Assembly (NCBI GenBank): GCA_963804995.1 | Contig: CAWDSK010000003.1 | Coordinates: forward strand, 1,248,001 to 1,312,000 | Direction of reading: 5' to 3' | Length of the DNA stretch: 64,000 bases | DNA from: an uncultured Acidobacteriota bacterium | Lineage (GTDB): Bacteria; Acidobacteriota; Terriglobia; UBA7540 | Part shown: positions 32,747 through 64,000 of the stretch, piece after piece | Position numbering within the stretch: the stretch's first letter is position 1 | Layout: the number at the start of each line of letters is the position of its first letter | Notes under the pieces: model-generated | Seen by the model: the letters and a program-made list of their open reading frames with translations, nothing else | Database searches by the model: none | What the model was told of the DNA's origin: nothing | Program-made: the position numbers and the translations under genes

Positions 32747-33339
32747 TTTCCCTCCATATGATTGTCGTTAGACTTCCGTTGCACAGGAACATGCCGGTCG
32801 CGGGATACGGTACGGTTTCCCGGCCGGATATTGACTTCCTCAAGATTTGCCCCCGAGGGGGTCCACGGCTTCTTTGGCAAATCGTGCCGTTTGTTTTCTT
32901 GTCACGGCGGTCGCAACCTGCCGATTCCGGCGCTACATTCCCGCGTCAGGGCAGCCTCCTACGTCCGCCACAGCAAACCACACCACCACCCTGGGCTTGA
33001 AAGGGCTGGCATTAGCCCCGCCCTCACCGTTAGCCCTTGATTGTGTCCAAGCGCTGTGAAGAATCCTGACTCTGCTTATCGGTCAGGGTAAGTATGGTTA
33101 CGGCAGGTTATTCCAAGATGAAGCCACCATGATTTAGATGTAACAATATCGCCTGGCGCACGGAGGCCCTTTCCAGATGGCCTGCTTCACTCCCCCTCGG
33201 GGGCCACCTCCCTGCGCCGGGGGCAGCGCTGATTTCCGCACCGGCTTGAAGCTTCATCTGCGGCTCACATTCCCGTAACAACCGCGACTTAGCATCTGTC
33301 TCCGCAGGCAAACAATACAAAACTTAAAAGGGGGCGACC

Positions 33340-33564
33340 ATGTCAAAGGAAGCGGCCAAACACGATCACAACGCAGCAGCACACCACGAGCACGCGGCGA
33401 AGCACCATCGCGAAGCCGCCCGGCATCATGAGGCGGGTGACCACGAGGCAGCCGCCCACCACGCCCACACGGCGCAAGGACACGCGCACCACGCAACCCA
33501 TCATGCCGCCGAAGCCGCAAAACTGCACGTCGAGCATCATGGGCACAAGGCAGGGGGCAAATGA
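33340..33564 (+). CDS. Small His/Ala-rich protein
   Basis: 74 aa with 22 His; AAGGGGG RBS upstream. Confidence 0.8.
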   Translation: MSKEAAKHDHNAAAHHEHAAKHHREAARHHEAGDHEAAAHHAHTAQGHAHHATHHAAEAAKLHVEHHGHKAGGK

Positions 33565-33676
33565 ACTGCATTGGAATTGGATAGTAGTTGCAAGGAGAGC
33601 GGGTTCCTCCCTTAGCGAGGAACCCGTTTCTCATCTGGGGCTCACTCGATCCGGGAGAACGCCTCCGAGAGGTCCC

Positions 33677-35020
33677 ATGGACCCTTCCACCGCTGAAGTC
33701 ATGCCCAACCTGCATGCCGACTCCGCCCCTTCCAGTCGAGCTGCCAGATACTGGCGCTGGCGTATTTTCATCATCACCTGGATCACCTATGCAGGGTTTT
33801 ACCTCTGCCGCAAGAACATCAGCGTGGTGATGCCGCTGCTCCAGCAAGATCGTGGGTACACCAACGCCCAGTTAGCAAAATTTGTCTTCGGTTACAGTCT
33901 GTTTTACACCGTCGGCCAGTTTGTTTGCGGGCTTCTTTCCGACCGTTTCGGGACACGCGTGGTAGTCGGCACTGGGCTCTTCGTGGTGGTTGGCTCGAAC
34001 CTGCTTCTGGGCTTTGGGTCTTCGCTCGGCTGGCTGATCCTTCTGGCTTGCCTGGCTGGCGCGGGACAATCCACCGGTTGGTCGGGACTGGTAAAGACCA
34101 TGGCCTGCTGGTTTCGCCCTACGGAACGGGGTGTGGTCATGGCGTGGTGGTGCACCAATTACGTGCTGGGCGGATTCCTCGCCACGGTATTTGCCACGTA
34201 CGTCGCCACCAGCGTTTGGTTGGTTCCGCGCTGGGGTTGGCGGCGCGGATTCTGGCTGCCCGCCTTACTGCTGTTGGTCATCGCCCTGGTCTATGTGTTC
34301 TTCGTGCGGAACAACCCCTCCGACGTCGGCCTCCCGGAGGTGGAAGACAACCCGGTTAAACCGGTCTCTGGCGTGGCCGCCCCCGCAACGTCCAGCACTG
34401 CCGGCGCGCCTCGATCGGCCGTGCGTCAGGTGCTCGCGGAGCCTACCTTGTGGCTCATTGGGTCCATGTATTTCTTCCTCATCCTCACCCGCTACGCGTT
34501 CCTCTTCTGGCTGCCGCTTTACATGACCCAGCATTTGAAGTATTCCGCGCAAGATGCGGGTTACACCTCATCGCTTTACGAACTGGTGGGTTTTCTCGGG
34601 GCTCTCATCGCCGGCTACGCTTCTGAGAAGCTTTTCGATTCCCGCCGCTTTCCGGTAGGAGCGCTGATGCTCTGGGGACTCGCCCTGACCAGTCTGATCC
34701 TGCCGAAACTCAGCGCCATGGGGCACCTCTGGAACGCGGTCGGCATTTCGTTGGTCGGCATCATGACCTACGGTCCTGACACGCTGATGTCGGGCGCGGC
34801 CGCTCAGGACGTCGGCTCCAAAGAAGGCGCCGCCACCGCTTCGGGTTTCATCGACGGCATCGGACACCTGGGCATGATCCTGTCCCCCTTCGTCGTGGCT
34901 TTCGTAACGGCACGCTATAGTTGGGATGTTCTCTTCTACCTCTTCGTGGTGCTTTCCTTGATCGCGGGTGGGATGCTGGCAACGCGCTGGAATTACAAGC
35001 GGGTAGCGCAGCAGAATTAG
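33677..35020 (+). CDS. MFS transporter, GlpT/UhpT (organophosphate:Pi antiporter)-like
   Basis: YAGFYLCRKN, GQFVCGLLSDRFG, QSTGW, WFRPTERG, ATASGFIDGIG. Confidence 0.85.
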   Translation: MDPSTAEVMPNLHADSAPSSRAARYWRWRIFIITWITYAGFYLCRKNISVVMPLLQQDRGYTNAQLAKFVFGYSLFYTVGQFVCGLLSDRFGTRVVVGTGLFVVVGSNLLLGFGSSLGWLILLACLAGAGQSTGWSGLVKTMACWFRPTERGVVMAWWCTNYVLGGFLATVFATYVATSVWLVPRWGWRRGFWLPALLLLVIALVYVFFVRNNPSDVGLPEVEDNPVKPVSGVAAPATSSTAGAPRSAVRQVLAEPTLWLIGSMYFFLILTRYAFLFWLPLYMTQHLKYSAQDAGYTSSLYELVGFLGALIAGYASEKLFDSRRFPVGALMLWGLALTSLILPKLSAMGHLWNAVGISLVGIMTYGPDTLMSGAAAQDVGSKEGAATASGFIDGIGHLGMILSPFVVAFVTARYSWDVLFYLFVVLSLIAGGMLATRWNYKRVAQQN

Positions 35021-35067
35021 GCGCGCAGGGACCTACCCTGCGGCCCGTCGATGCGTGGGAGCGGCCG

Positions 35068-35340
35068 CCTCTGTTCCCTGTTCCCTATTCCCTGTTACCT
35101 GCACTTCCGTTCCCTGTTCCCTGTCACCTGTTCCCTGTTGCCTGTTCCCTAGTCCTTCCGCTCCTCGCTGGTGACTGTCCTGCTGTTCCCTGTAACCTGT
35201 TCCCTGTTCCCTGTACTTCCGTTCCCTATTCCCTATTCCCTAGTCCCTGTTCCCTAGTCCTTCAGCTCCTCGCTGGTGACTGTCCTGCTGTTCCCTGTAA
35301 CCTGTTCCCTGTTACCTGCACTTCCGTTCCCTAGTCCTTC
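35068..35340. repeat. Pyrimidine-rich heptamer tandem repeat (CCCTGTT-like) with a higher-order duplication
   Basis: Many CCCTGTT/CCCTATT units; the block CCCTAGTCCTTC..CTCCTCGCTGGTGACTGTCCTGCTGTTCCCTGTAACCTG occurs twice, about 105 bp apart. Confidence 0.85.
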
Positions 35341-35685
35341 CGCTCGTCGCTACCACGCTTCACCGCCTTCCGTCGTCAAGAACATCAGCAGAAATCGGCG
35401 CCTCGGTGATGGTCTGCGGATGACCGCAAGAAGAATCTTAGCGCGCCAGCTTGCATGATGACCCCGGCCCGTCCGTAAACAATATGCTGTGGGTAAGGGA
35501 CTATGGCGCTGCTGCTGCCTCCATGCTCGCGCCGTGGCGAGGCACTTCCGCGGCAAGGCGACTTGCGGCCATGTGGTTACAGGCTGCGGAAGGTAGTTCC
35601 CCTTCTTCGCGCTACCCCCCAACGTTGAGTGGTCAATCTGACTGTTTTTTGTCTATAGCGACCGACTGGGAGGGGTCAAATCTTT

Positions 35686-36585
35686 TTACGACCAACCGTT
35701 CCACAGCTTGATTACGGCATCTATAAACGCTGATCCGTTTGCCTTGGGCCAACAGACAGGCGAGCCATCAAGCAGCAAATAGTACTGCTCATTCGCGCAA
35801 CGAAACTTGCTCCGGTCCTTTGTGTCGTCGAGCCACTTCAAGATGTTGTACACCCTCTCTGATTCATCGGACACAAAGTTCGGGTTGGGGACGTTATAGA
35901 GAAGTCCTTCGATGTAGTAGGACGGTGCGGTGCCATCTGCGATAACGCGATCCTCAACCAATTTCGACCGCATATTCTTGAACATTCGAACTGTCGGCTT
36001 GAAGCGGTTATTGATTGCCTGATGCTTCGTCGTGAGGTTCTCGCTGTGCTGATCCGGATAGTTGGCGATGAGGTTTCCGGTCGAATTTAAAAAACCTATT
36101 CCCAGGGTATAGCTTTCGTCCCACATGGAAATAAATTTGTTATAGCGGCGGTATTCATACGCGACCACTACGTCAGCACTTCGGCGAGAGTTATTCGCGT
36201 CGATCTTTATTGCCTTCGTGCCGGGCCTGACGGAATTACCAAAGGCAGTCTTGAGCGCTGATTGGACATGACTCTTGAAATTGTCATAGGGATAGTCGGC
36301 AGGGCCCGAATAATGATTATTGTAAGCGGCCAACTGATCGGGAGGCAGAGAGCTAAGGTCCCGAAAAAACGCGCCGTCATATCGAATGACAACATCCACA
36401 TCACTTTCCGCATAGATATTCGTGTCGTTGCCGTACGAGCCCTGCAGAAAGACTTTGAAGTTGCGGTCCTTATAGGAGGCAGTCGCTGCTTCCAGAGCGT
36501 TCTTCACGGTCGCATAGGTTTGCTTCGATTGAGTGACTGAGCCCTGGTGCGACCATCTTTCGAGTTGGTTCGCGGGAATGGCCAT
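35686..36585 (-). CDS. cGAS/DncV-like nucleotidyltransferase (CD-NTase, CdnE-like), CBASS synthase
   Basis: FLQGSYGNDTNIYAESDVDVVI, ADVVVA third acidic residue, NYPDQH, FKPTVRMFKN, APSYYIEGLLYNVP; adjacent to a patatin gene. Confidence 0.9.
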   Translation of the reverse strand: MAIPANQLERWSHQGSVTQSKQTYATVKNALEAATASYKDRNFKVFLQGSYGNDTNIYAESDVDVVIRYDGAFFRDLSSLPPDQLAAYNNHYSGPADYPYDNFKSHVQSALKTAFGNSVRPGTKAIKIDANNSRRSADVVVAYEYRRYNKFISMWDESYTLGIGFLNSTGNLIANYPDQHSENLTTKHQAINNRFKPTVRMFKNMRSKLVEDRVIADGTAPSYYIEGLLYNVPNPNFVSDESERVYNILKWLDDTKDRSKFRCANEQYYLLLDGSPVCWPKANGSAFIDAVIKLWNGWS

Positions 36586-36586
36586 C

Positions 36587-37594
36587 TTACGCGTGGACTC
36601 CTCCTTGCGCGGGAAGATCTAGCAATTCTCTAAGCCGGGCTTCGTGCTTTGCGAATGAGTCTCCGCCGCGTTGGTAAAGCGTATTCAATTTCGAGAGATC
36701 GGATTCCATAAGGTCCGTCGCCATCTCAGGCTGCTGATACGTGTCATTAATTCGGACAGCTCGAATATCCCCAAACAGAATGCAACGCAATTGCTCCATC
36801 GATTCGGTGTTCACGTTGAGGGTTTTTTGGAGCAACTCAACGCCCGTGAAGCCAATCAAACATTTTGCAACGAGCGTGAAAAAATATTTTGGCGTGTACC
36901 AACGTTTCGGTTCCGGGTAAACCCCGACACCGACGCTGACAACTCGGAGATCGGCGGGGTCTTTTTGGAGGGCTCGAACCGCATCGGCGATTGCATACAA
37001 AGTCGGATTGTTGGCACAATACCCGCCGTCGATGAGTTCAACGTCGTTCCCTGCAATTGTCCTTATTGTGCATTTCTGAAAATAGGGATATGCCGAGCAA
37101 GAAGCACGCACTGCATCAGCTATGGTACAGCCGAAACCGGGCACGAATGTGTCTTTGCGACCATGGGCTTGTTGTTTGTCACCCTTAAAGATCATCGGCC
37201 GTTCCTCTTGCCAACGTGTTGCCACGATTCCGACGCTAGTCTTAACCTGATTGAAATTATTTTCCCCGAAGACCTGGCTGGCGAGCACGGCTAATGCTTT
37301 AGATTTTCTGCGTCGGGTCCAGCGCTTCATGACGGTAGGAACGTGCTCGCGGTAAAGCTTGTGAACCTCAGCGACCGTATATCCAAGTGCCAAAAGCGCG
37401 GCTATGATCGCGCCGGTGCTGGTTCCGAAAATAAGGTCGAAATGTTCGCACAGGCGTTGAGGCGCAACCATCGCCTCGATCTCGTTCAGAACTCCGAGCG
37501 TATAAAATCCCTTGGCGCCGCCACCGTCGAGCGAGAGCACGCGGCAAGGAGTACCAGTTATGGGCGACTCCGCTGTTTTGTGCATGCCTTCCAT
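36587..37594 (-). CDS. Patatin-like phospholipase, CBASS effector (CapE/CapV-like)
   Basis: LSLDGGGAKG, GTSTG nucleophile, ASCSAYPYF, IDGGYCANNP; stop is 1 nt before the CD-NTase start. Confidence 0.9.
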   Translation of the reverse strand: MEGMHKTAESPITGTPCRVLSLDGGGAKGFYTLGVLNEIEAMVAPQRLCEHFDLIFGTSTGAIIAALLALGYTVAEVHKLYREHVPTVMKRWTRRRKSKALAVLASQVFGENNFNQVKTSVGIVATRWQEERPMIFKGDKQQAHGRKDTFVPGFGCTIADAVRASCSAYPYFQKCTIRTIAGNDVELIDGGYCANNPTLYAIADAVRALQKDPADLRVVSVGVGVYPEPKRWYTPKYFFTLVAKCLIGFTGVELLQKTLNVNTESMEQLRCILFGDIRAVRINDTYQQPEMATDLMESDLSKLNTLYQRGGDSFAKHEARLRELLDLPAQGGVHA

Positions 37595-37665
37595 TGACTC
37601 TCCCCCTGCTACTAGACCGACAGCGGCATTCAATTGCAATGGGACACAGTAAGTTTAGCACCGCA

Positions 37666-39415
37666 TTACTCGGTGACAAAATATGTGTCGTCAAGTCGTG
37701 GATCTGGCTCAAACCTTTCTGTCATAATGACAATTCTACCCACTTCCCGATGGAGGGCTTCGATCCTGTCGAGCGCCTGATTGACTCGGTCGCATTGCTC
37801 GAACGTTAAGGTAAAAACGATGCGCATCTAGCCACATTCTAGATTTGTGATAAGTGTCAAGAGTAGCAGACGCGAGTTCGCCGATTTCCCGTTCAATTTC
37901 ACCGCGTTTAATTTGAGGCCTCAACATCGGAATAACATCAACTGTCCGATCGTCAGATACAACAATTGCAAGTCTGCGCCGTTTGCTGGAAAGTACATAA
38001 CGCAGAGCTGAATTGTACCGTGACCCCCGGGACGGAGTGCACTCAGGCGCCGCTTCTCCGTCAAGTATCACGCCCACCGCATGACAGAAACCATGCTGAT
38101 CAATAATGATGGTTCCGTCGATCCAACTCACACGTTCCAGCAGCATCGGCGTCATCAGCACTGGACTAATCCCCATTCCCTGCCGAGCGAGGCGTTCCGA
38201 TTCATCCTGCGCGTCCTCCGCGACGACAATCATACTCCCGTGATGCTGATGTGCGACAGTTTTGAAAAGTGTCCAAGAATGGACACAGTCGTTGGTGGAT
38301 GCGTCTGGGAAGAGACGCTTGTAGTTGGCAGTAAATTGATCTTGGCTGATTGATTCCTGTGGCAGGCGGGGTTCGCGGTAACGGCTATACATGAGTACCT
38401 GGGTCCCGCATTGGAGTTCCCAGTGGTAATGGTCCAAGAAATTAATCGTGAAGGCATCTAGAGCTCCCTCATCGTGACCGTCCTTAAGCTTTCCTAAACC
38501 AAAAATCTCTTCCGAGTTTGCAATAAGCGCGACGTTTGAAGTCGCCATCTGGAGAACCTTTCGAGCCCATCTTGGCTGTCGAAAGGGAACCGGTACTTTG
38601 AAACGCACAAAATATTCGACCGATTCACTCTCCGGGTCGACAAGTACTAGGTGACCGGTTCCCCGTATGCCTTCGTAAAGCAGAGAGGAAATGATATTAA
38701 ATCTTTCGAATAGGTTATCATATGAGTACTTGTCGCCTATGAGGAGGGCTGGAATTCGCATGAAACCGTCGGCGGCATTATGGACGATTTCAGCAGGGCT
38801 CCGCATATCCGGGATTATGAATCTGCCAGGCTCGGGAGTCAGGAGTTCTTTACTAGCTTCCTCTAAAACGATCGAAATCGATGAATGAATTAGGCTCCTA
38901 TCGCCCTGTGGAAAATGCGGATCATTGGTAGCGGGAATTTTGAGGGGCGGGAATTGCGAGAAGATCGACTCAGGAACTTGGATCACCGGCACCACGTAGT
39001 AATCACCAACGGGGCGAGCTGAACCGCAGAACGACTGCACGCCATTCTTAACATCGTAGGGCTTCAATGCGTCGTGTACGGCGGTCGTAACGGAATCACG
39101 CCGAATGTTTTCAGGTTTGTCGCGCATAGACGGTTCATCACCGTAGAACATATTCTGCAATCGATGATTCTTGACGGTGTTTTCGATTGAGTCCAACAGA
39201 TTGTTAAATAAAGACAGCTGCCATTTTTCATCTTCTGGCTCAACGCAGATAGGATTGTTATTGATGCTTTGCGGCTTTCTGGCTCCGACCACAAGAACGT
39301 CCGGTTTAAGGCGGATTCCCAATTCATCGAATACATGCTCCGCAAGGAATTGAACGGACAACCTGAAGTGCGGTTGATATCCCCACATGAATAGCATAAT
39401 TCTGTGCTCTCTCAT
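37666..39415 (-). CDS. Diadenylate cyclase (DisA_N/DAC) domain protein with long N-terminal extension; 1-nt frameshift near the 3' end
   Basis: HGSMIVV..IDGTIII..GVILDG..RGSRYNSA..IVVSDD DAC-fold motifs; the ORF as given stops at 37736, but removing one base at ~37802 reads on as EQCDRVNQALDRIE...DDTYFVTE to TAA at 37666. Confidence 0.8.
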
Positions 39416-40615
39416 ATGTTTTAACTCTAAGTGATGGCGCCCGGTCGTTGCCTCGGACGCATGGTCACTATGCTACATCTGTTTTACACGTTTCCGTGCG
39501 GTGATTTATTCCACTGTGAGTGACGGTGCTCTCTGAAACAATCCACTTGGTCGTATTATGGCCTTGTCGGAAACTGGCCGCTGCCGTGTATACGTGACTC
39601 CTCAATAAGGAATTGGACCTGCCTCGTCTCCTTGAGTGTACGAACGCCGGGTTGCGGTTCAAATTACACTGACACACGAAATCTGTAGAGTCTGCTCTAG
39701 AGTTTTTGCCGCATCCCTGAGACTCTCAAGACCTGGCTCCCCTCAAACTGATGATTTCGGCGCCATTTTATCCCGGCGCTGACACGCCATCTGCTCACGG
39801 ACACCCGCTCCTCTGGGCGACGGGGGATTTCATTTCGCCAGAATTCGGTGCTTGACTTTGTTTACTTGTGAGGTATAATCTTAATCGTACCGTGCGGTCC
39901 GGCTCGGCAGGAAGACTCGGAGCGCGCGAGGCAGAGCCGGGCAATTGGGCAGGAAGGGAGTTATGTAGCCGCGGCGACACGAGGATTTCGCAGCGCCTTT
40001 ATGTCCGACCATGACGTTTTTCTCCCAAAGCCGAGAACATACTGAAAACAAAGGGCGGGGAGAGACAAATTTCGTTTCCCAAAGCCGAGAACATCCAGAA
40101 AACAAACCCACTTACCAGGCCTACCAAAAACGGGATATCGACCTGACAAAATGTCCTACAGAAAAAGACCTCCTTCCTCGCCCCAGGCCCACCGTTAAGC
40201 CGCTTTCAACTATCTAACTGGGCTACATTGGTTCGCCCCGCCGCAGCGGGTTCTCCCATATCGGTTATCGGTAGGATCGACACCAAGAATGAAGCATATT
40301 GAGTGGCCCGTAACAAGCGGTTTAACCCCTCACCCGCCCCGGCTGGTGAAAACGCCGGCTGCGGTCCACCCTCTCCCCTCGGAGAGGGCTATGCGTTTTC
40401 GGCTTGGTCCGATGAGGCCTTGACCCGATGGCCCATGCCCCCCACCGACCTCCCCCCGCCGTGACACACTTTCCCATATCGGTTATCGGTAGGTTGACAT
40501 CCAAACCTGAACCAAAATTCGGCTGGAAGTTTGACAATCACCAATTCACCCAATCGCGAAATCACTCAATGACCCGATGATCCGATGACTCAATGGCCCG
40601 ATCTGGATCGATCGC

Positions 40616-41666
40616 TTGTTGGCGGCTGCCTTGGGCCTGCGGGGAGATTTCGTTCCAGACTTCCGCCTGATCGATTATCCGGTGGCGCTGATGAGCACTG
40701 ACCGGAGTCCGGCCCTGGACGGGACGCTCGGCAACACGGACCGTCTCAAGAGCGACCTGGCCGACCTGGGCGTCTTCGATGCGCGCATGTCAATGTACTT
40801 GCCTTTCCGCTTGCGCACCGCTGCGGTCATGGGATTTTCCGGCTATGAGGGGCGTCATTACAGTGTCTTCGAGCGTTTTGAAGCTGATATGGGACCGGCC
40901 GTGGACCTACAAAATCTCGTTGTGGCCCTGGCCCACAAATACGTGGCGTTAGGCCTGCTCTCCCACCAGCACATTCCCGATGACCCCTGCCTGGAAAGCG
41001 AGCGTCGCCAGATATTCTTCGGAGCAGCGATCGGCCTTCCCACTTTCTACGTGCGGCGCGAATCACCCAACGCCTTCCTGCGCCACATCGTGGAACGGAC
41101 CCACGGCGTGCGGGCCAGTCACCGTTATCCGGGTTACTTGCGAGTCCGCAACTTGGAATGTCAAAAGAGTCTCCTCACCATTCTGAAGGAAGACGCGGCC
41201 GACTTGATCGAGGCCTTGCAACTTCAAGAGATGATCCGCGACCTCGAGAACCGGCTGGATCACCCGGCGGAATGTTCATCGGCGGGCCGACTTACCCGCG
41301 GCATCCTACAGGTGGCCAGCGAGCGTTTTCCACTCAACACAGAGGCGCGGACCTTCAATCAGGCTGCGGAGACTTACTACCGCGGGCCTTTGCGCGAGCA
41401 GCACCTCCGTGAAGCCTTTGAAATTCTGGCCCGGGAATGCTGCGGGATTGAAGTTGAGGACCCTGAAGCGCTTGGCGCCATCCTGGGATCGAATAATCTT
41501 CGAGACTTTCCTTGAGAGGGCTTGTACGCAGGTGTGCCAGGAAACGATCACCCTGGAAGACCTGCGCCGCCTGACGAGCCTCACCCTTCTGAGTATTCAA
41601 CACGAGCAGAGGCTGGCGGAGAAGTACTGGCCTTCCGCCCACGTCCACCCTCTCCTCCGGGCATGA
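40616..41666 (+). pseudogene. 5'-truncated uncharacterised protein, frameshift near 41500
   Basis: Coding-like sequence begins abruptly after a repeat tract; the second frame continues ETFLERAC... to a TGA overlapping the psd ATG. Confidence 0.6.
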
Positions 41667-43860: not shown

Positions 43861-44733
43861 GTGATACTCGTCCTGCAGGCACGGATCCGGTTGCCTGCGG
43901 TTTCAGCCGTTTTTGATTGCGGAGACTCAATTAGGAGCCATCCTCAGCCGGCGCGGCGAGTTCTGCCGCGCACCTTTGAGGTCGCTTTCCCAACGATGCA
44001 CAGATTTCCCCCGGCGACGCCCAGCACTAATCCCACCTGGGGCTGCCCGCGAATTGCTCAACAGATTGCCTGGGCGTTCGACATCCCCATCGACAAAGAC
44101 GTGGTTCGAAGGATTCTCGCCCGTCACCACCGACCGGGACAGGGCTCTGGTGGTCCATCCTGGCTGACCTTCATTGGACACCTGAAGGACAGCCTCTGGA
44201 GTCTGGATCTGTTCAGGTGCGAATCGGCCACGTTGCGGACCCACTGGGTCCTGGTCGTCATGGATCAGTACACTCGTCGGATCATTGGGTTCGGCGTCCA
44301 TGCCGGAACCGTCGATGGTGTCGGGTTTTGCCGGATGTTCAACCGCGCGATTCGATGGCAACGCTGGATGCCGAAGTACCTTAGCTGCGACCACGATCCC
44401 CTTTATCGGTTTCATCAATGGCAAGCCAATCTGTGCATCCTGGAGGTGGCCGAAATCAAGACCGTGCCCTACGTCCCCTCGTCCCATCCCTTTGTGGAGC
44501 GGTTGGTCGGCACCCTCCGCCGAGAGTGCTTGGATCATACGCTGTTTTGGACAACTGCCGATCTCGAAAGCAAGCTGCTCGATTTCAAAACCTATTTTAA
44601 CCATCATTGCACCCATAACGCACGGGCGGGGAGACCACCAGACAACGTGCCGACTCGGCCGGCCGCGAACCTTCAATCTTCTCGATGGGAATCTCACTGC
44701 CGAGGACTGTATCAAACACCGATGGCGGCTTAA
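43861..44733 (+). pseudogene. Integrase-core (DDE/rve) transposase remnant
   Basis: NPTWGCPRI, WSLDLF, LSCDHD, ERLVGTLRRECLDH, CRGLYQTP; degenerate 5' end. Confidence 0.8.
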
Positions 44734-59365: not shown

Positions 59366-61606
59366 TCACATCTTAACCAGCTCCACGCGCCGATTCTTGG
59401 CGCGGCCCTCGGGCTTGCCATTGTCGTCAATGGGGTTGCTGTCGCCGTATCCCGCCGAACTCAGCCGGTCCGCCGCTATACCCGCTTTCGCCAGCGCATC
59501 CACCACCGCCGCGGCGCGCGCCTGCGAGAGCTTGACGTTGTATTCGTGTGTCCCCACATTGTCGGTGTAGCCGTTGATGGAAAGCTTGAGATCCGGGGAC
59601 TGCTTCATCATGCGGATCACTTCGTTGACGGTGGGCTTACTCTCCGGCTTGATGATCGCCTTGTCGAAGTCGAAATTGATGTAGATCGTCACGCGGCCAT
59701 GCAGATCGATCTCCGCCTTGAGCGCCTCGGCGGTAGTTGGCGGGGGTGCAGGTGAGGCGGAAGTCTCCACGGCGGGCCACGCCAGGCAGAGCGTATTGGA
59801 CTTCCCACTCTCGTCCGTGCCGCGGATGGCAAGAGCATGAGGCGCCGCCAAAGTCTCGTTCGTAGTGCTGACGCTCAGCCGGGTCTTGGAGATTTCTGTA
59901 AGGTTAATGGTGTCCGAATCGAAGTGGAAGCGCAGGCTGGGATCGGGAGGCACGGAAGTGGCACGCATCTGGAGATTTCCCTTATATCCGTGGTTGGCGA
60001 GGAGGATGAGGGGGTAAGTGTAGGATTGGCCACGCGTCACTCCCTGGCTCTTGAGGTTCTCGTCGGTTGCAATAATGAAGTCGCCGATCGGGATGCTACA
60101 GGGAAGCCCGTCCGGGTCGAAGGGGAGGGCCAGCTCGCGAGTCACCAGTTTCTCGTACTCCCGGCTGTCCTTCTGATCTTTATCGAAACCGTCGTAGATG
60201 ATGAGGCCCCGGCCAAAGTGCGCGTAAGCCTCCACGAAGCCGTTCTCATTGTTTACATTCGTGGTAAACAGGTGTCCGCACCAGTGGCTGTCGTATTGGG
60301 TAATGAGGTTGGAATCCCCCAACTCATTATGGTTGCCGTTCTCGCTGGCCAACCACGGTGCGACATTCAGGAAGCCGGCTTCTTTAGGCTGGGCATTGGC
60401 GAGGATATTCTCCTCGACAAAAATGAGCTGGTCGCTGGGCGCGCCCTGCGCGCCGGGATTGTTGGTGGCAAACCGGTAAGGCAGGAAGCCATAGTCCGGC
60501 CCTTTGCCACACGAATCCGCGTCCTGGATGATAAGCTTGTGGCCCTGCGCCACCCAAGCAATCAAGGCCTTTTTGAAGGCGCTCGGCAAGCGCTCACACA
60601 CTTGCGAGAGCACCACCGTGTCAAACCCCTCGGCGCTCAGCAACCTTGCCGGCGCTGCGTATCCCGGGTCTACAAGACTCAGGAACTTCATATGCTTATA
60701 GATTGAACGGCCGGGGCGGTCCTCGGCGGTAGAGGTGGCGTAGGTTAACGGTGGATATACTTCCTCGCCATTGACGACGAGGATGTTTTCACTTCCGCCA
60801 TGCGCGGCGGGGGGCAGGTTGACCACCGCGGGACGGGGTGCGCAACCTTCCCCGGCAGGCGCCTGACGAGCCGCGGTGGCCGTGCCCGGTGCGGCGGGAA
60901 TCGGCAGCTTTACCGGGAATATTCCTTCCAGGGGAGCGCCGCTCAGAAGAGCGGCAAGATCGGGATTGCGCGTGAGCATCGGAACATAGCCAGGGCCGCT
61001 TGCTTCAATGACCTTGACCTTCCCCATCTGGGCCCCTTGATTGTCACCATAGTTAGAGAGCACGCGAATCTTCACGTAGCGCGCCATGACGGGCGGAAAC
61101 GAAATTACTTGATCACCCGGATCGTTGGACAAAGTTTTTTGCGCAACCTTGGTAAATCCCTGGTCGGGACTGTCCTTCGAGACCCAGATTTCGACATCCT
61201 TGGCCCAATTCGGGGGGTCGTTGCGGGTGGCGGTGTTGATGACGACCGTGGCGATCAGCCCGGGCTGGTGGGCGAAAAACGACAGAACAACTTCCTGGGG
61301 AAAGTCCTTTGGAAAATCGAGGTTGGCGGAAGACCACCCGGTGTCTGCAAATTGCTTGCCCGCCAAGAGCGCCCAAGGTGACCACTCCGGTTTAGGATAC
61401 TGCGAGCTGGCCTTATCGGCGCTCCCGCCCATGTCGAGCGAGACGAGGTCCACGCCCCCTGCGGCTGCCACCGCGGGAGCTGAGGGACCCTCAGCGGCGG
61501 TGCTCGGCCCTGTCAGCAGGCACGCTGCGAACACCCCCAACAAGATAGCGATGCCGGAGCCGGCAGGACGCCGCCACTCCGACCACAACCCGTGTGCCGT
61601 GTCCAT
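59366..61606 (-). CDS. OmpA-family protein with N-terminal discoidin (F5/8)-like domain
   Basis: INFDFDKA, INGYTDNVG, NVKLSQARA, KNRRVEL; N-terminal KDVEIWVS..ARYVKIRV. Confidence 0.88.
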   Translation of the reverse strand: MDTAHGLWSEWRRPAGSGIAILLGVFAACLLTGPSTAAEGPSAPAVAAAGGVDLVSLDMGGSADKASSQYPKPEWSPWALLAGKQFADTGWSSANLDFPKDFPQEVVLSFFAHQPGLIATVVINTATRNDPPNWAKDVEIWVSKDSPDQGFTKVAQKTLSNDPGDQVISFPPVMARYVKIRVLSNYGDNQGAQMGKVKVIEASGPGYVPMLTRNPDLAALLSGAPLEGIFPVKLPIPAAPGTATAARQAPAGEGCAPRPAVVNLPPAAHGGSENILVVNGEEVYPPLTYATSTAEDRPGRSIYKHMKFLSLVDPGYAAPARLLSAEGFDTVVLSQVCERLPSAFKKALIAWVAQGHKLIIQDADSCGKGPDYGFLPYRFATNNPGAQGAPSDQLIFVEENILANAQPKEAGFLNVAPWLASENGNHNELGDSNLITQYDSHWCGHLFTTNVNNENGFVEAYAHFGRGLIIYDGFDKDQKDSREYEKLVTRELALPFDPDGLPCSIPIGDFIIATDENLKSQGVTRGQSYTYPLILLANHGYKGNLQMRATSVPPDPSLRFHFDSDTINLTEISKTRLSVSTTNETLAAPHALAIRGTDESGKSNTLCLAWPAVETSASPAPPPTTAEALKAEIDLHGRVTIYINFDFDKAIIKPESKPTVNEVIRMMKQSPDLKLSINGYTDNVGTHEYNVKLSQARAAAVVDALAKAGIAADRLSSAGYGDSNPIDDNGKPEGRAKNRRVELVKM

Positions 61607-61666
61607 GATCCCTCCTCCTTGTAGTGGGCTAATATCAGTCTGCGTCTTCCTCAACAGGTCCGTCGC

Positions 61667-63817
61667 TCACATCCTCACCAATTCCACGCGCCGATTTTTG
61701 GCACGGCCCTCGGGCTTGCCATTGTCGTCAATGGGGTTGCTGTCGCCGTATCCCGCCGAACTCAGCCGGTCAGCCGCGATGCCCGCTTTTGTCAGCGCAT
61801 CCACCACTGCCGCGGCGCGCGCCTGTGAAAGCTTGACGTTGTATTCGTGTGTCCCCACATTGTCGGTGTAGCCGTTGATGGAAAGCTTGAGATCCGGGGA
61901 CTGCTTCATCATGCGGATCACTTCGTTGACGGTGGGCTTACTCTCCGGCTTGATGATGGCCTTGTCGAAGTCGAAGTTGATGTAGATCGTCACGCGGCCA
62001 TGGCGATCGATCTCCGCCTTGAGTTCCTCCGCGGTAGTTGGCGGGGGTGCAACGGAAAGTTCGCCGGGGGTCGGCTGGACGAGTTGCAGGCAGAGCGTGT
62101 TCGTCTTGCCGGCCGCATCCACACCCTTCACCTGGAGCGCCTGGGGAGTGGAAGGTGCGTTGGCGGGCATCGTCAGGGAAAACTTGGCTTCGGCCAGGCC
62201 GTCCACGCCCACGGACGCGGGAGCGAAGCTGGCCTGCATGCCGTCCAGGCCGGGGGAGGCCGTGACCGAGAGGCTGACGGTCCCCTTGTAACCCTGGTTA
62301 GAAAGCAGGGTCAGGGGGTAGTCGTAGCTCCGGCCTGGCAGGAGCGGCCGTTCTATCAAACGCGTTTCGGTGGTGACCACAAAGTCGCCGATGCGCGCGG
62401 CACACGGCAAGTTGTCAGGATCGAATCCCTGGGCGAGTTCGCGGCCGACGAGGGTGTTAAACCCGACCGTACCTGTCATGTCGATGTCGAATCCGTTGTA
62501 GATAATTAACCCGCGGCCATAATGAGCGTAGGTATAAGCAAAGCCAAAAACGTTGTTCACGTTACGCACCACCATCTGACCGCACCAATGAGGGTCCCAG
62601 GCGACCAAGGTGTTCGAGTCGCCGAGCTCGTTGCGGTAATCATCCGTACTATTTTCCCAGGCGGCCACGTCGATGTACCCGGGTTGACCCCGGTGGCCGT
62701 GCGCCATCCAGTTCTCCTCCACGAAACGCAGGAAGTTGCCCGGCGCTCCCTGCGCTCCCGGGTTATTGGTCTTGAAGAGGTACGGCAACCACGAGTAATC
62801 GGGGCCGGCTTGGCACTTGTCCGCATCGTGGATGATCAGTTTGTTGCCTTCGGCAACCCAGGGCGCGAGCACGGGTTTGAACTCCGCCGCGAGCGGTGTG
62901 GGGTTGCCCTCGCAGACCTGCTCCAGCACGACCGTGTCATAACCCTCCTTGGGGGAGAGCATCCAGGGCCGGGCCCGGTTCCCGGGAACAACGGTGTAAT
63001 CCGCGCGCCCCGCTGCTGCCAGGTCAGGCCGCTGTTGGAGATAGTCCGGATGGTTCTTCAGGTAGACCCCCCCGGTGGCTGCGTCTGCATTGGTCCAGGG
63101 CGCCGATCCGAGCACCAGGACGCGTTTGCTTTCACCGTGACCCGGCGGCGGGGGCGTGGGAGGTACGGGCACACAAGCCGGGGGAGTTCCGGCAGCAGGC
63201 ACCGCGGTGCCTGCGCCCGAGGAGGCCCGCGGCCCCATCAGGTCTGGGCGGCGGGCCAGGAGCGGCGTGTAGCCGGACCGCCGTGACTCCAGCACCTTCA
63301 GCTCAGAAATCTGGAACATCTCGCCACCTGCCTGGTTGTGCAGCAGCCGTAACTGAACGTAGCGCGCCTCCACCGGGTCAAAGCGGATAGTGTTCTCACC
63401 CGTCCCGGGCAGCGCGGCGGTGGCGACTCGTGTGAAGCCCTGCTTCGGTCCGGTACTGGATACCCACACCTCCACATCGCGCGCCGTGTTGCTAGGCGGT
63501 GCGCTGGGGTCGACAAAAATCGTGACGCGGTCGATCAGTACGGATTCGTGATCCGCGAACGACAGCACTATCTCCTTGGGCCCGGGATCGTCGGCCGACA
63601 TCCACAAGGTTTCTTTGTCCCCGTCGATGAGGTTCAGCAGGCTGTCTTGCCCGCCCAAGTTGTCATCCGCGGTTCCGGTCGCGCTCTCCACTTTCCCGCC
63701 CCACTCGAGTGCCGCTACGTTTCCATCGAACTGGCGCGCCGCAGCTTGGGCGGCCAGGGCCACGGCCACACTAAGTAAGGCCACTCCCCCGATCGTGAGA
63801 CCAACCAACTTCTTCAT
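61667..63817 (-). CDS. OmpA-family protein with discoidin-like domain, paralogue of 59366-61606
   Basis: Same architecture; NLIDGD..W, RDVEVWVS, ARYVQLRL; near-identical OmpA domain. Confidence 0.88.
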   Translation of the reverse strand: MKKLVGLTIGGVALLSVAVALAAQAAARQFDGNVAALEWGGKVESATGTADDNLGGQDSLLNLIDGDKETLWMSADDPGPKEIVLSFADHESVLIDRVTIFVDPSAPPSNTARDVEVWVSSTGPKQGFTRVATAALPGTGENTIRFDPVEARYVQLRLLHNQAGGEMFQISELKVLESRRSGYTPLLARRPDLMGPRASSGAGTAVPAAGTPPACVPVPPTPPPPGHGESKRVLVLGSAPWTNADAATGGVYLKNHPDYLQQRPDLAAAGRADYTVVPGNRARPWMLSPKEGYDTVVLEQVCEGNPTPLAAEFKPVLAPWVAEGNKLIIHDADKCQAGPDYSWLPYLFKTNNPGAQGAPGNFLRFVEENWMAHGHRGQPGYIDVAAWENSTDDYRNELGDSNTLVAWDPHWCGQMVVRNVNNVFGFAYTYAHYGRGLIIYNGFDIDMTGTVGFNTLVGRELAQGFDPDNLPCAARIGDFVVTTETRLIERPLLPGRSYDYPLTLLSNQGYKGTVSLSVTASPGLDGMQASFAPASVGVDGLAEAKFSLTMPANAPSTPQALQVKGVDAAGKTNTLCLQLVQPTPGELSVAPPPTTAEELKAEIDRHGRVTIYINFDFDKAIIKPESKPTVNEVIRMMKQSPDLKLSINGYTDNVGTHEYNVKLSQARAAAVVDALTKAGIAADRLSSAGYGDSNPIDDNGKPEGRAKNRRVELVRM

Positions 63818-63842
63818 AAGTCCTCCCTGATGCGTGTTCCGG

Positions 63843-64000
63843 GTCACGACCCGGCATGAGGGCTCAGGCGGCGGTCAGGAATACAATGAAGAAGAGAATT
63901 GCGGCACGCCCAAGACGGCTTGCCTGAGTCCGTAATGAATATCCTTCTCAAAGGTATAAGGCCGGATACCAGCAAAGAAATGGAGCCGTCCCCCTTTGAC
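63843..64000. repeat. ~157-bp direct repeat, copy 2 (runs to the window edge)
   Basis: Closely similar to 57498-57654. Confidence 0.92.

Follow-up and report, generated by a model that had tools for sequence, protein, structure and literature searches.

A probable DS-2/CBASS-DAC antiphage cassette with a rare gene order in a probable acidobacterium

Introduction

What does a protein with a diadenylate cyclase (DAC) fold do beside a patatin phospholipase and a nucleotidyltransferase of the cGAS/DncV-like kind (CD-NTase), a pair that by itself is a type I cyclic oligonucleotide-based antiphage signalling system (CBASS)? The question is raised by three co-oriented genes on the minus strand (39415-35686) of a 64,000-nucleotide stretch of contig CAWDSK010000003.1, here called the window; positions are those of the window unless a contig or locus label precedes them. 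An initial annotation, made from the sequence alone, took this combination to be undescribed. The system is in fact already known: it has been named twice, has been validated in E. coli and is covered by NCBIfam models. It was reported as DS-2, a DefensePredictor system of phospholipase, cGAS and DAC (PMC13092281), and as CBASS-DAC or Liu-DS2 (PMC13069673). Judging from its sequence, the cassette in the window very likely belongs to this published antiphage system.

In the window, DS-2 occurs in a rare gene order and in a host that is probably an acidobacterium, which widens its known range. Comparison of relatives places the CBASS-linked DAC proteins (DS-2C) in one clade, tied to uracil-type CdnE enzymes and two exchangeable effectors. 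This result sharpens a question stated in the papers, namely which signal DS-2C makes and what triggers it.

Gene layout and identity of the cassette

The cassette consists of the following features.

37736 to 39415, minus strand: main frame of the DS-2C (CdaG) protein, 559 aa in the assembly; Pfam, NCBIfam and fold matches
37666 to 37800, minus strand: final 44 conserved residues of DS-2C, one base out of register with the main frame; similarity to the E. coli DS-2C tail
36587 to 37594, minus strand: CapE-type patatin phospholipase (DS-2A), 335 aa from the ATG; NCBIfam, PADLOC and PDB matches
35686 to 36585, minus strand: clade E CD-NTase (CdnE type, DS-2B), 299 aa; NCBIfam, PADLOC and PDB matches

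All three proteins pass the cut-offs of the NCBIfam DS2 "antiphage" equivalogs: the patatin scores 477.4 bits with NF053870 (DS2_1, cut-off 400), the CD-NTase 418.4 bits with NF053871 (DS2_2, cut-off 350) and the main frame of DS-2C, shifted tail excluded, 684.6 bits with NF053872 (DS2_3, cut-off 630). NF053872 alone does not define the system, as its cut-off is also passed by CBASS-free Bacteroidota proteins. The E. coli locus annotated with the three DS2 names encodes proteins 56% (WP_001593457.1, over 533 aa), 62% (WP_001593459.1) and 54% identical to the DAC protein, patatin and CD-NTase, respectively, and reciprocal searches did not place the window's proteins outside the DS-2 families. 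DNA of the E. coli DS-2 locus is matched in 18 of 5426 complete E. coli genomes.

The initial annotation had described three visibly AT-rich genes, closely spaced and led by a DAC protein of ~580 aa, which implies a frameshift; open reading frames, base composition and tail similarity bear this out. The G+C content of the DAC, patatin and CD-NTase genes is 49.7, 52.4 and 50.2%, against 58.7% in the window, and their G+C at third codon positions is 0.51-0.62, against 0.65-0.77 in four flanking genes. From the shifted DAC stop to the patatin ATG at 37594, which is preceded by a GGGGGAG ribosome-binding site, there are 71 nt, and 1 nt separates the patatin stop from the CD-NTase. An Rfam search of 33000-41000 gave no match.

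Genetic work on the E. coli system showed that defence was lost in either of two DAC mutants (PMC13092281). In one replicate set of the supplement, the -log efficiency of plating of phage Bas1 was 4.0 for the wild type, 0.18 for D433A and -0.37 for "R468A", and the wild type gave 1.6 and 2.2 in two other rows. The mutagenic primers map to D433 (IDGT) and R466 (RGSRYNS) of WP_001593457.1; the mutant labelled R468A in the strain and primer tables is codon 466 of this protein by its primer. CBASS-DAC protected from five phages by abortive infection (PMC13069673). Its defence was abolished by mutation of the DAC or of the signal site of the phospholipase, and mutation of the cGAS had minor effects only, with most T5 and Rao1 defence kept. 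Acb1, which destroys the nucleotide signal, suppressed the immunity, and Tad1, Tad2 and Acb2 did not. The authors proposed that the DAC is the source of the signal, with different phages sensed by cGAS and by the DAC. The convergence of two synthases on one phospholipase, which the initial annotation had considered, is the published model. CBASS-DAC was found in Pseudomonadota only, with a likely sampling bias noted.

The DAC protein

DS-2C consists of DACNG (residues 10-219), DACNH (residues 234-336), the catalytic DAC domain (about residues 370-498) and the start of C-terminal helices. Pfam recognizes the two N-terminal domains (PF21752, E 1.4e-59; PF21750, E 5.4e-26) and gives no match with PF02457 (DAC), although the fold is shared. 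The order DACNG-DACNH-DAC is reportedly that of the CdaG family named by Galperin in 2023. DS-2C was placed in this family, with DACNH as a distant, non-catalytic DAC relative (PMC13640721). The AlphaFold2 model of the 559-aa frame has a mean confidence (pLDDT) of 81.4, and that of residues 1-345 reaches 92.8. In the predicted structure, residues 371-498 match the CdaA/DisA fold (CdaA: Z 12.2, root-mean-square deviation 2.9, 113 residues aligned), as the initial annotation had supposed for the C-terminal part. The DACNH model likewise resembles MsDisA (Z 8.6, deviation 3.4, 106 residues aligned), and a fold search with it put DAC entries in the top six ranks of 48,161; on these models, DACNH is a degenerate DAC fold. 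The matches of DACNG to roadblock, GAF and solute-binding folds were weak (Z 6.5 or less) and were not counted; a sensor role for this domain is a hypothesis taken from Pfam names and papers. No relative of DS-2C was found by sequence search of the PDB, and PADLOC 2.0 lacks a model for it.

The motifs IDGT, GVILDG, RGSRYNSA and VVSDD are present, and D433 and R466 align with the same residues of WP_001593457.1, with DGT and RGSRYNS common to both proteins. At the first motif, 34 of 80 related loci have DGA, 31 DGT and 13 DGS, and in 2 it is absent from the aligned piece; at the second, 78 have [AS]R[YF]N. By this alignment, DGT and RGSRYNS are the norm for the DS-2C family, not a local alteration. 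The canonical DAC motif context is G-T-R-H-R. The canonical RHR most likely lines up with RYN rather than SRY, with the first Arg kept, a pairing that rests on the DisA/CdaA pattern and a statement on G107-R108 of PanS, not on residue-level superposition. The first Arg of RYN is the one mutated in the E. coli protein. A housekeeping enzyme would be expected to have DGA, RHR and a Pfam DAC match; DS-2C has DGT and RYN. The initial annotation had seen altered forms of DGA and RHR here, which are normal for the family. Its suggestion that such a protein might merely bind a nucleotide is not supported, since the same motifs occur in the E. coli DS-2C, where both residues are essential (PMC13092281).

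The phospholipase and the CD-NTase

The oxyanion, Ser and Asp motifs of patatins are all present in the phospholipase: DGGGAKG, GTSTG (Ser59) and DGG (Asp189). It matches the PADLOC phospholipase effector model (E 8.7e-152), and its best solved relative is PDB 9IOM, titled "cUMP-AMP-activated phospholipase" (E 1.5e-118). The CD-NTase has a GS motif, D62/D64/D138 and a lid Asn175, matches a PADLOC cyclase model (E 1.8e-121) and is closest in the PDB to 6E0K (E 1.3e-51), whose Asn166 aligns with Asn175 as counted along the alignment. These matches support the reading of the two genes as a type I CBASS, as first proposed. 6E0K is RmCdnE, a synthase of cyclic UMP-AMP (cUA) whose Asn166 binds uracil (PMC10442399). 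According to a statement cited in PMC12804361, CdnE makes 3'3'-cUA, and CapE responds with filaments and membrane disruption. The lid Asn occurs in 32 of 32 full-length CD-NTases of DAC-linked loci, all of clade E, and in 71 from DAC-free CapE loci; the profile favours clade E, and the count is not independent of how the enzymes were found.

Genomic neighbourhoods of DAC and patatin relatives

The DAC neighbourhoods scored here are the best 80 of 383 matches, in genomes taken one per species, with profiles built from these loci. Among relatives with at least 38% identity, a CD-NTase lies within 4.5 kb in 33 of 47 and a CD-NTase or an effector in 39; restricted to loci with 2.5 kb of flank at either end, these figures become 24 and 30 of 37. 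Below 38% identity there is no CD-NTase (0/33) and one effector (1/33). The initial annotation had allowed that DAC homologues might never occur with CBASS; instead, the link recurs. Among the 126 nearest neighbours of the 47 loci lacking a CD-NTase, PADLOC detected no cyclase, and several of these loci adjoin restriction-modification (R-M) or bacteriophage exclusion (BREX) genes. In L054:4989-6743 (the same as L013), a DS-2C gene without a CBASS part stands between pglX and pglZ of a BREX-1 operon.

The most common order is patatin-CdnE-DAC (15 loci), followed by CdnE-Cap15-DAC (10) and Cap15-DAC (4). The order in the window is found in one of the 80 (L055); nine loci are divergent or mixed and in eight the DAC is alone. 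A few patatin matches of the mixed forms are divergent or ~3 kb off and may be unrelated. The effector is exchangeable between loci, being either a patatin or Cap15. In four loci (L026:4353-6752, L035:4268-6740, L037:4294-6731 and L051:4245-6728), a Cap15-type 2TM-beta gene is followed by DS-2C with no CD-NTase in ~5 kb of flank. They sit at three separate places on the DAC tree and are a candidate two-gene system; a Cap15 and DAC pair lacking a CD-NTase fits a direct signal from DAC to effector. A CdnE-like gene was found in none of the four genomes, but the controls were also silent, so that absence is not implied. The literature covered, including passages of PMC13640721 and PMC13092281, gave no description of this two-gene form. 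In the genome of the window, profile search found no Cap15-like gene.

On a FastTree tree of the DAC proteins (77 rows; five partial loci left out, two of them CBASS-linked), every CBASS-linked row falls within one clade of 46 rows with support 100. The 31 rows outside, which include five from Bacteroidota, have no CBASS part nearby, and neither do five further loci of a Bacteroidota sample within 1.5 kb. The Flagellimonas and Hymenobacter DS-2C proteins, Bacteroidota enzymes which make c-di-AMP in vitro and whose role was left open (bioRxiv 10.64898/2026.08.10.743927), may lie outside the CBASS-linked clade.

For the patatin, the best 80 of 506 CapE-like loci were scored by alignment scan. 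All 80 have a CD-NTase and 10 have a DAC (8 of 55 with enough flank), so the CapE-CdnE pair also stands alone. Of the 92 rows of the patatin tree 70 were scored, and among these the presence of a DAC switches at least 14 times, a count made without a shuffle control and on a sample enriched for DAC-positive rows. The sister row of the window is L104, with 77% patatin identity and no DAC. The trees and neighbourhoods indicate that the DAC is an optional extra which has been gained or lost repeatedly.

Some loci have unusual arrangements. A CapE-like patatin and a CdnE-like CD-NTase share one open frame of 626 aa in L116:4983-6860, either through fusion or as an artefact of assembly. In L101:3944-10180 (E. 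coli), DS-2 has directly behind it another CBASS, made up of dncV and a CapV-type phospholipase, and two CBASS units surround one DS-2C in L039/L167.

A frameshift late in the DAC gene

After about residue 538 the conserved sequence of DS-2C leaves the main frame, with the break at about 37810-37801. Read across the break, the gene has ~582 codons, against 581 aa in the E. coli protein, and the shifted tail of 44 aa is 50% identical to E. coli DS-2C residues 539-580. As assembled, the last 44 conserved residues are replaced by ~21 others and the DAC domain is whole. The frameshift is the sole lesion of the gene, and both catalytic residues are kept.

An assembly error is somewhat the likelier origin of this frameshift. 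The sole match over the cut-off in the genome to leuS, an essential gene, is likewise split between two frames (C3:18417-20910), a warning for any call of a broken gene here. Among 29 genome loci testable with homologous open reading frames, five switch frame: the DAC gene, the patatin/CD-NTase boundary, which is an artefact of the fused query, and 3 of the other 27. An error is likelier than a real lesion because the only leuS is frameshifted and these other loci switch frame as well. If the frameshift is real, the DAC arm may be damaged, and the CapE-CdnE pair would still be an ordinary type I CBASS.

That the DAC gene is a recent pseudogene, with plain CapE-CdnE CBASS alone at work, is a possible but less probable account. 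It is favoured by the loss of a tail that reaches at least 43 residues beyond the break point in 77 of 81 relatives, by the DAC-free state of the nearest patatin relative, by the repeated changes of DAC presence and by the broken copies among relatives (L034, L069 and L071). The genes rpoB, rpoC, gyrA, secA and valS are each intact in a single frame of the assembly, which also speaks for a real lesion; for alaS, no full-length copy was found in the genome. Against it stand the indel errors of the assembly and the single lesion that spares the catalytic residues. This account concerns the state of the present copy, not what the system is.

Acquisition and genomic surroundings

The distribution of the cassette argues that it is a horizontally acquired island, because its DNA was not found in 40 relatives, its patatin was not found in 28 congeners, and, of 401 genomes of the phylum, this one alone has a DAC match over the cut-off. 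The nearest patatin relatives indicate that the host is probably an acidobacterium. The genome, 92% complete, gave no match with the Pfam DAC model, which misses DS-2C itself; interference from housekeeping c-di-AMP is not indicated.

Upstream of the cassette lies the following feature, given for context only.

39526 to 40615, no strand assigned: repeats dispersed in the genome, of low copy number as far as 40255 and followed by a high-copy element

Repeats of this dispersed kind lie on both sides of the cassette (39526-40615 and 35369-35559). The upstream repeat has copies of 89-94% identity elsewhere in the genome, with the 94% copy at C6:1042622-1043704 and further partial copies; the copy at C6 precedes a Mre11/Rad50-like pair. 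A sigma-70-like site matching at 11 of 12 positions lies in the upstream repeat (plus strand, 39852-39879), and the plus strand downstream of it folds no better than shuffles (z -0.19). An element with fixed ends and exchangeable defence cargo was considered, as both flanks recur ~6 kb apart at C3:1366696-1374383. It was dropped in favour of ordinary dispersed repeats, since the cargo at C3 consists of an aminotransferase and, by a weak match, what is probably a TonB-dependent receptor.

A CCTGTTC-type short tandem repeat, with many copies elsewhere in the genome, lies at 35071-35330 behind a major facilitator superfamily gene. An open frame of ~300 aa without a family match (40589-41515, plus strand) starts at the repeat edge, its 5' part apparently missing, and leads phosphatidylserine-decarboxylase-like and Lgt-like genes. 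The cassette is 4 kb away from an integrase-core (rve) transposase-like gene (43861-44733, plus strand). The stretch at 47-64 kb is a series of predicted secreted proteins and includes a tandem pair of partly duplicated genes (59366-63847, minus strand); they have near-identical C-termini, presumably OmpA-like.

Proposed mechanism and rival explanations

The cassette is, with good confidence, a horizontally acquired DS-2/CBASS-DAC that would act by abortive infection with one effector and two signal makers. A phage cue would activate DS-2C through DACNG/DACNH, and its DAC domain would then make an adenosine-containing cyclic dinucleotide, as the E. coli genetics and the Acb1 evidence suggest. 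This nucleotide would switch on the CapE-type phospholipase and the cell would die before the phage could spread, as published for E. coli. CdnE would be a parallel input that answers other phages, in the view of the published authors and of this analysis. The permuted gene order is probably without effect on the mechanism.

Several points weigh against this reading. DAC dependence, Acb1 sensitivity and abortive defence come from E. coli operons only, and the copy in the window is known from its sequence. In the literature covered, the case for activation of the phospholipase by a DAC product comes from genetics. A c-di-AMP product was shown for Flagellimonas and Hymenobacter DS-2C only (bioRxiv 10.64898/2026.08.10.743927), and CapE is described as cUA-activated. 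Under the profiles used here, no CBASS part lies near 8 of 47 close and 32 of 33 distant DAC relatives, so the protein also occurs without such partners. In the assembly the DAC gene is frameshifted, and a promoter scan bearing on co-transcription gave five matches with 4.9 expected, which is chance level; a terminator scan was likewise at chance level.

The initial annotation had allowed for a product other than c-di-AMP. That c-di-AMP may not be the signal is suggested by the single clade of the CBASS-linked DACs and by the uracil-binding type of the CD-NTases that go with them. It is tentatively proposed that this clade makes a signal tuned to uracil-type effectors, 3'3'-cUA or a new adenosine-containing nucleotide, cut by Acb1 and missed by Tad1, Tad2 and Acb2, rather than c-di-AMP; DS-2C would then be a plug-in phage sensor for any cUA-type effector and the Cap15 pairs without a CD-NTase a working system in their own right. 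The degenerate DACNH might hold the enzyme inactive before infection or give the active site an asymmetric form. The proposal concerns the family as a whole rather than a special trait of the present copy.

Could DS-2C instead act on the CD-NTase, as a gate or through c-di-AMP, with only cUA reaching the phospholipase? The initial annotation had offered such gating, and it would agree with the title of the CapE structure, the uniform lid Asn in DAC-linked loci and the c-di-AMP, and not cUA, made in vitro by DS-2C homologues (bioRxiv 10.64898/2026.08.10.743927). However, mutation of the cGAS left T5 and Rao1 immunity largely in place, whereas mutation of the DAC abolished it (PMC13069673), and in four loci DS-2C stands beside an effector with no CD-NTase; such a relay is very unlikely. 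The complex prediction for DS-2C residues 1-537 with the CD-NTase scored 0.30 against a mark of 0.32, which is evidence neither way.

A guard or decoy resembling Panoptes or Panoptoo would have a constitutive DAC product hold the effector off until phage sponges or nucleases release it, or soak up sponges so that cUA survives. Minimal DACs act so with S2TM-beta effectors (bioRxiv 10.64898/2026.08.10.743927), and the two-gene Cap15 loci share this outline. Yet DAC catalytic mutants could be built and kept, and they lost defence (PMC13092281); far from triggering CBASS-DAC, Acb1 suppressed it, and Tad1, Tad2 and Acb2 were without effect (PMC13069673). In addition, CapE is tolerated without an inhibitor, as 70 of 80 CapE-CdnE loci have no DAC. 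A guard is thus highly improbable. Chance adjacency of unrelated defence genes in an island might explain why the gene order differs from the usual one and why DS-2C also occurs alone beside R-M and BREX genes. For the family it is already refuted by recurrent linkage, here and in 15 of 30 DAC homologues found beside CBASS (PMC13092281), and by genetic interdependence in E. coli (PMC13092281; PMC13069673), and for the window it is barely credible.

Comparison with known systems

Like the E. coli DS-2, the cassette has three adjacent, co-oriented genes, the same motifs with D433/R466, and a DAC protein of the same length if the frameshift is read across. It differs in the order DAC-patatin-CD-NTase, against patatin-CD-NTase-DAC in E. 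coli, and in the frameshift near the end of its DAC gene. CBASS-DAC was described from Pseudomonadota only (PMC13069673), whereas the host here is probably an acidobacterium. As in the type I CBASS CdnE-CapE (6E0K; 9IOM), its CD-NTase is of clade E and has the lid Asn that binds uracil, and a CapE-type phospholipase lies 1 nt upstream of it; the extra DS-2C gene is the difference. With the CdaG diadenylate cyclases, DS-2C shares the domain order and the degenerate DAC fold of DACNH, and it differs from the wider family in its place within the CBASS-linked clade. Panoptoo/PanDA also employs a DAC-fold enzyme with non-canonical motifs in antiphage signalling, and some PanS make 3'3'-cUA (PMC13640721; bioRxiv 10.64898/2026.08.10.743927). 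Panoptoo has a minimal DAC beside an S2TM-beta effector, whereas the window has a DAC protein of 559 aa or more and a patatin. PanS, of ~150 aa, is constitutive and inhibitory; DS-2C, of ~580 aa and with N-terminal domains, would act positively on its phospholipase.

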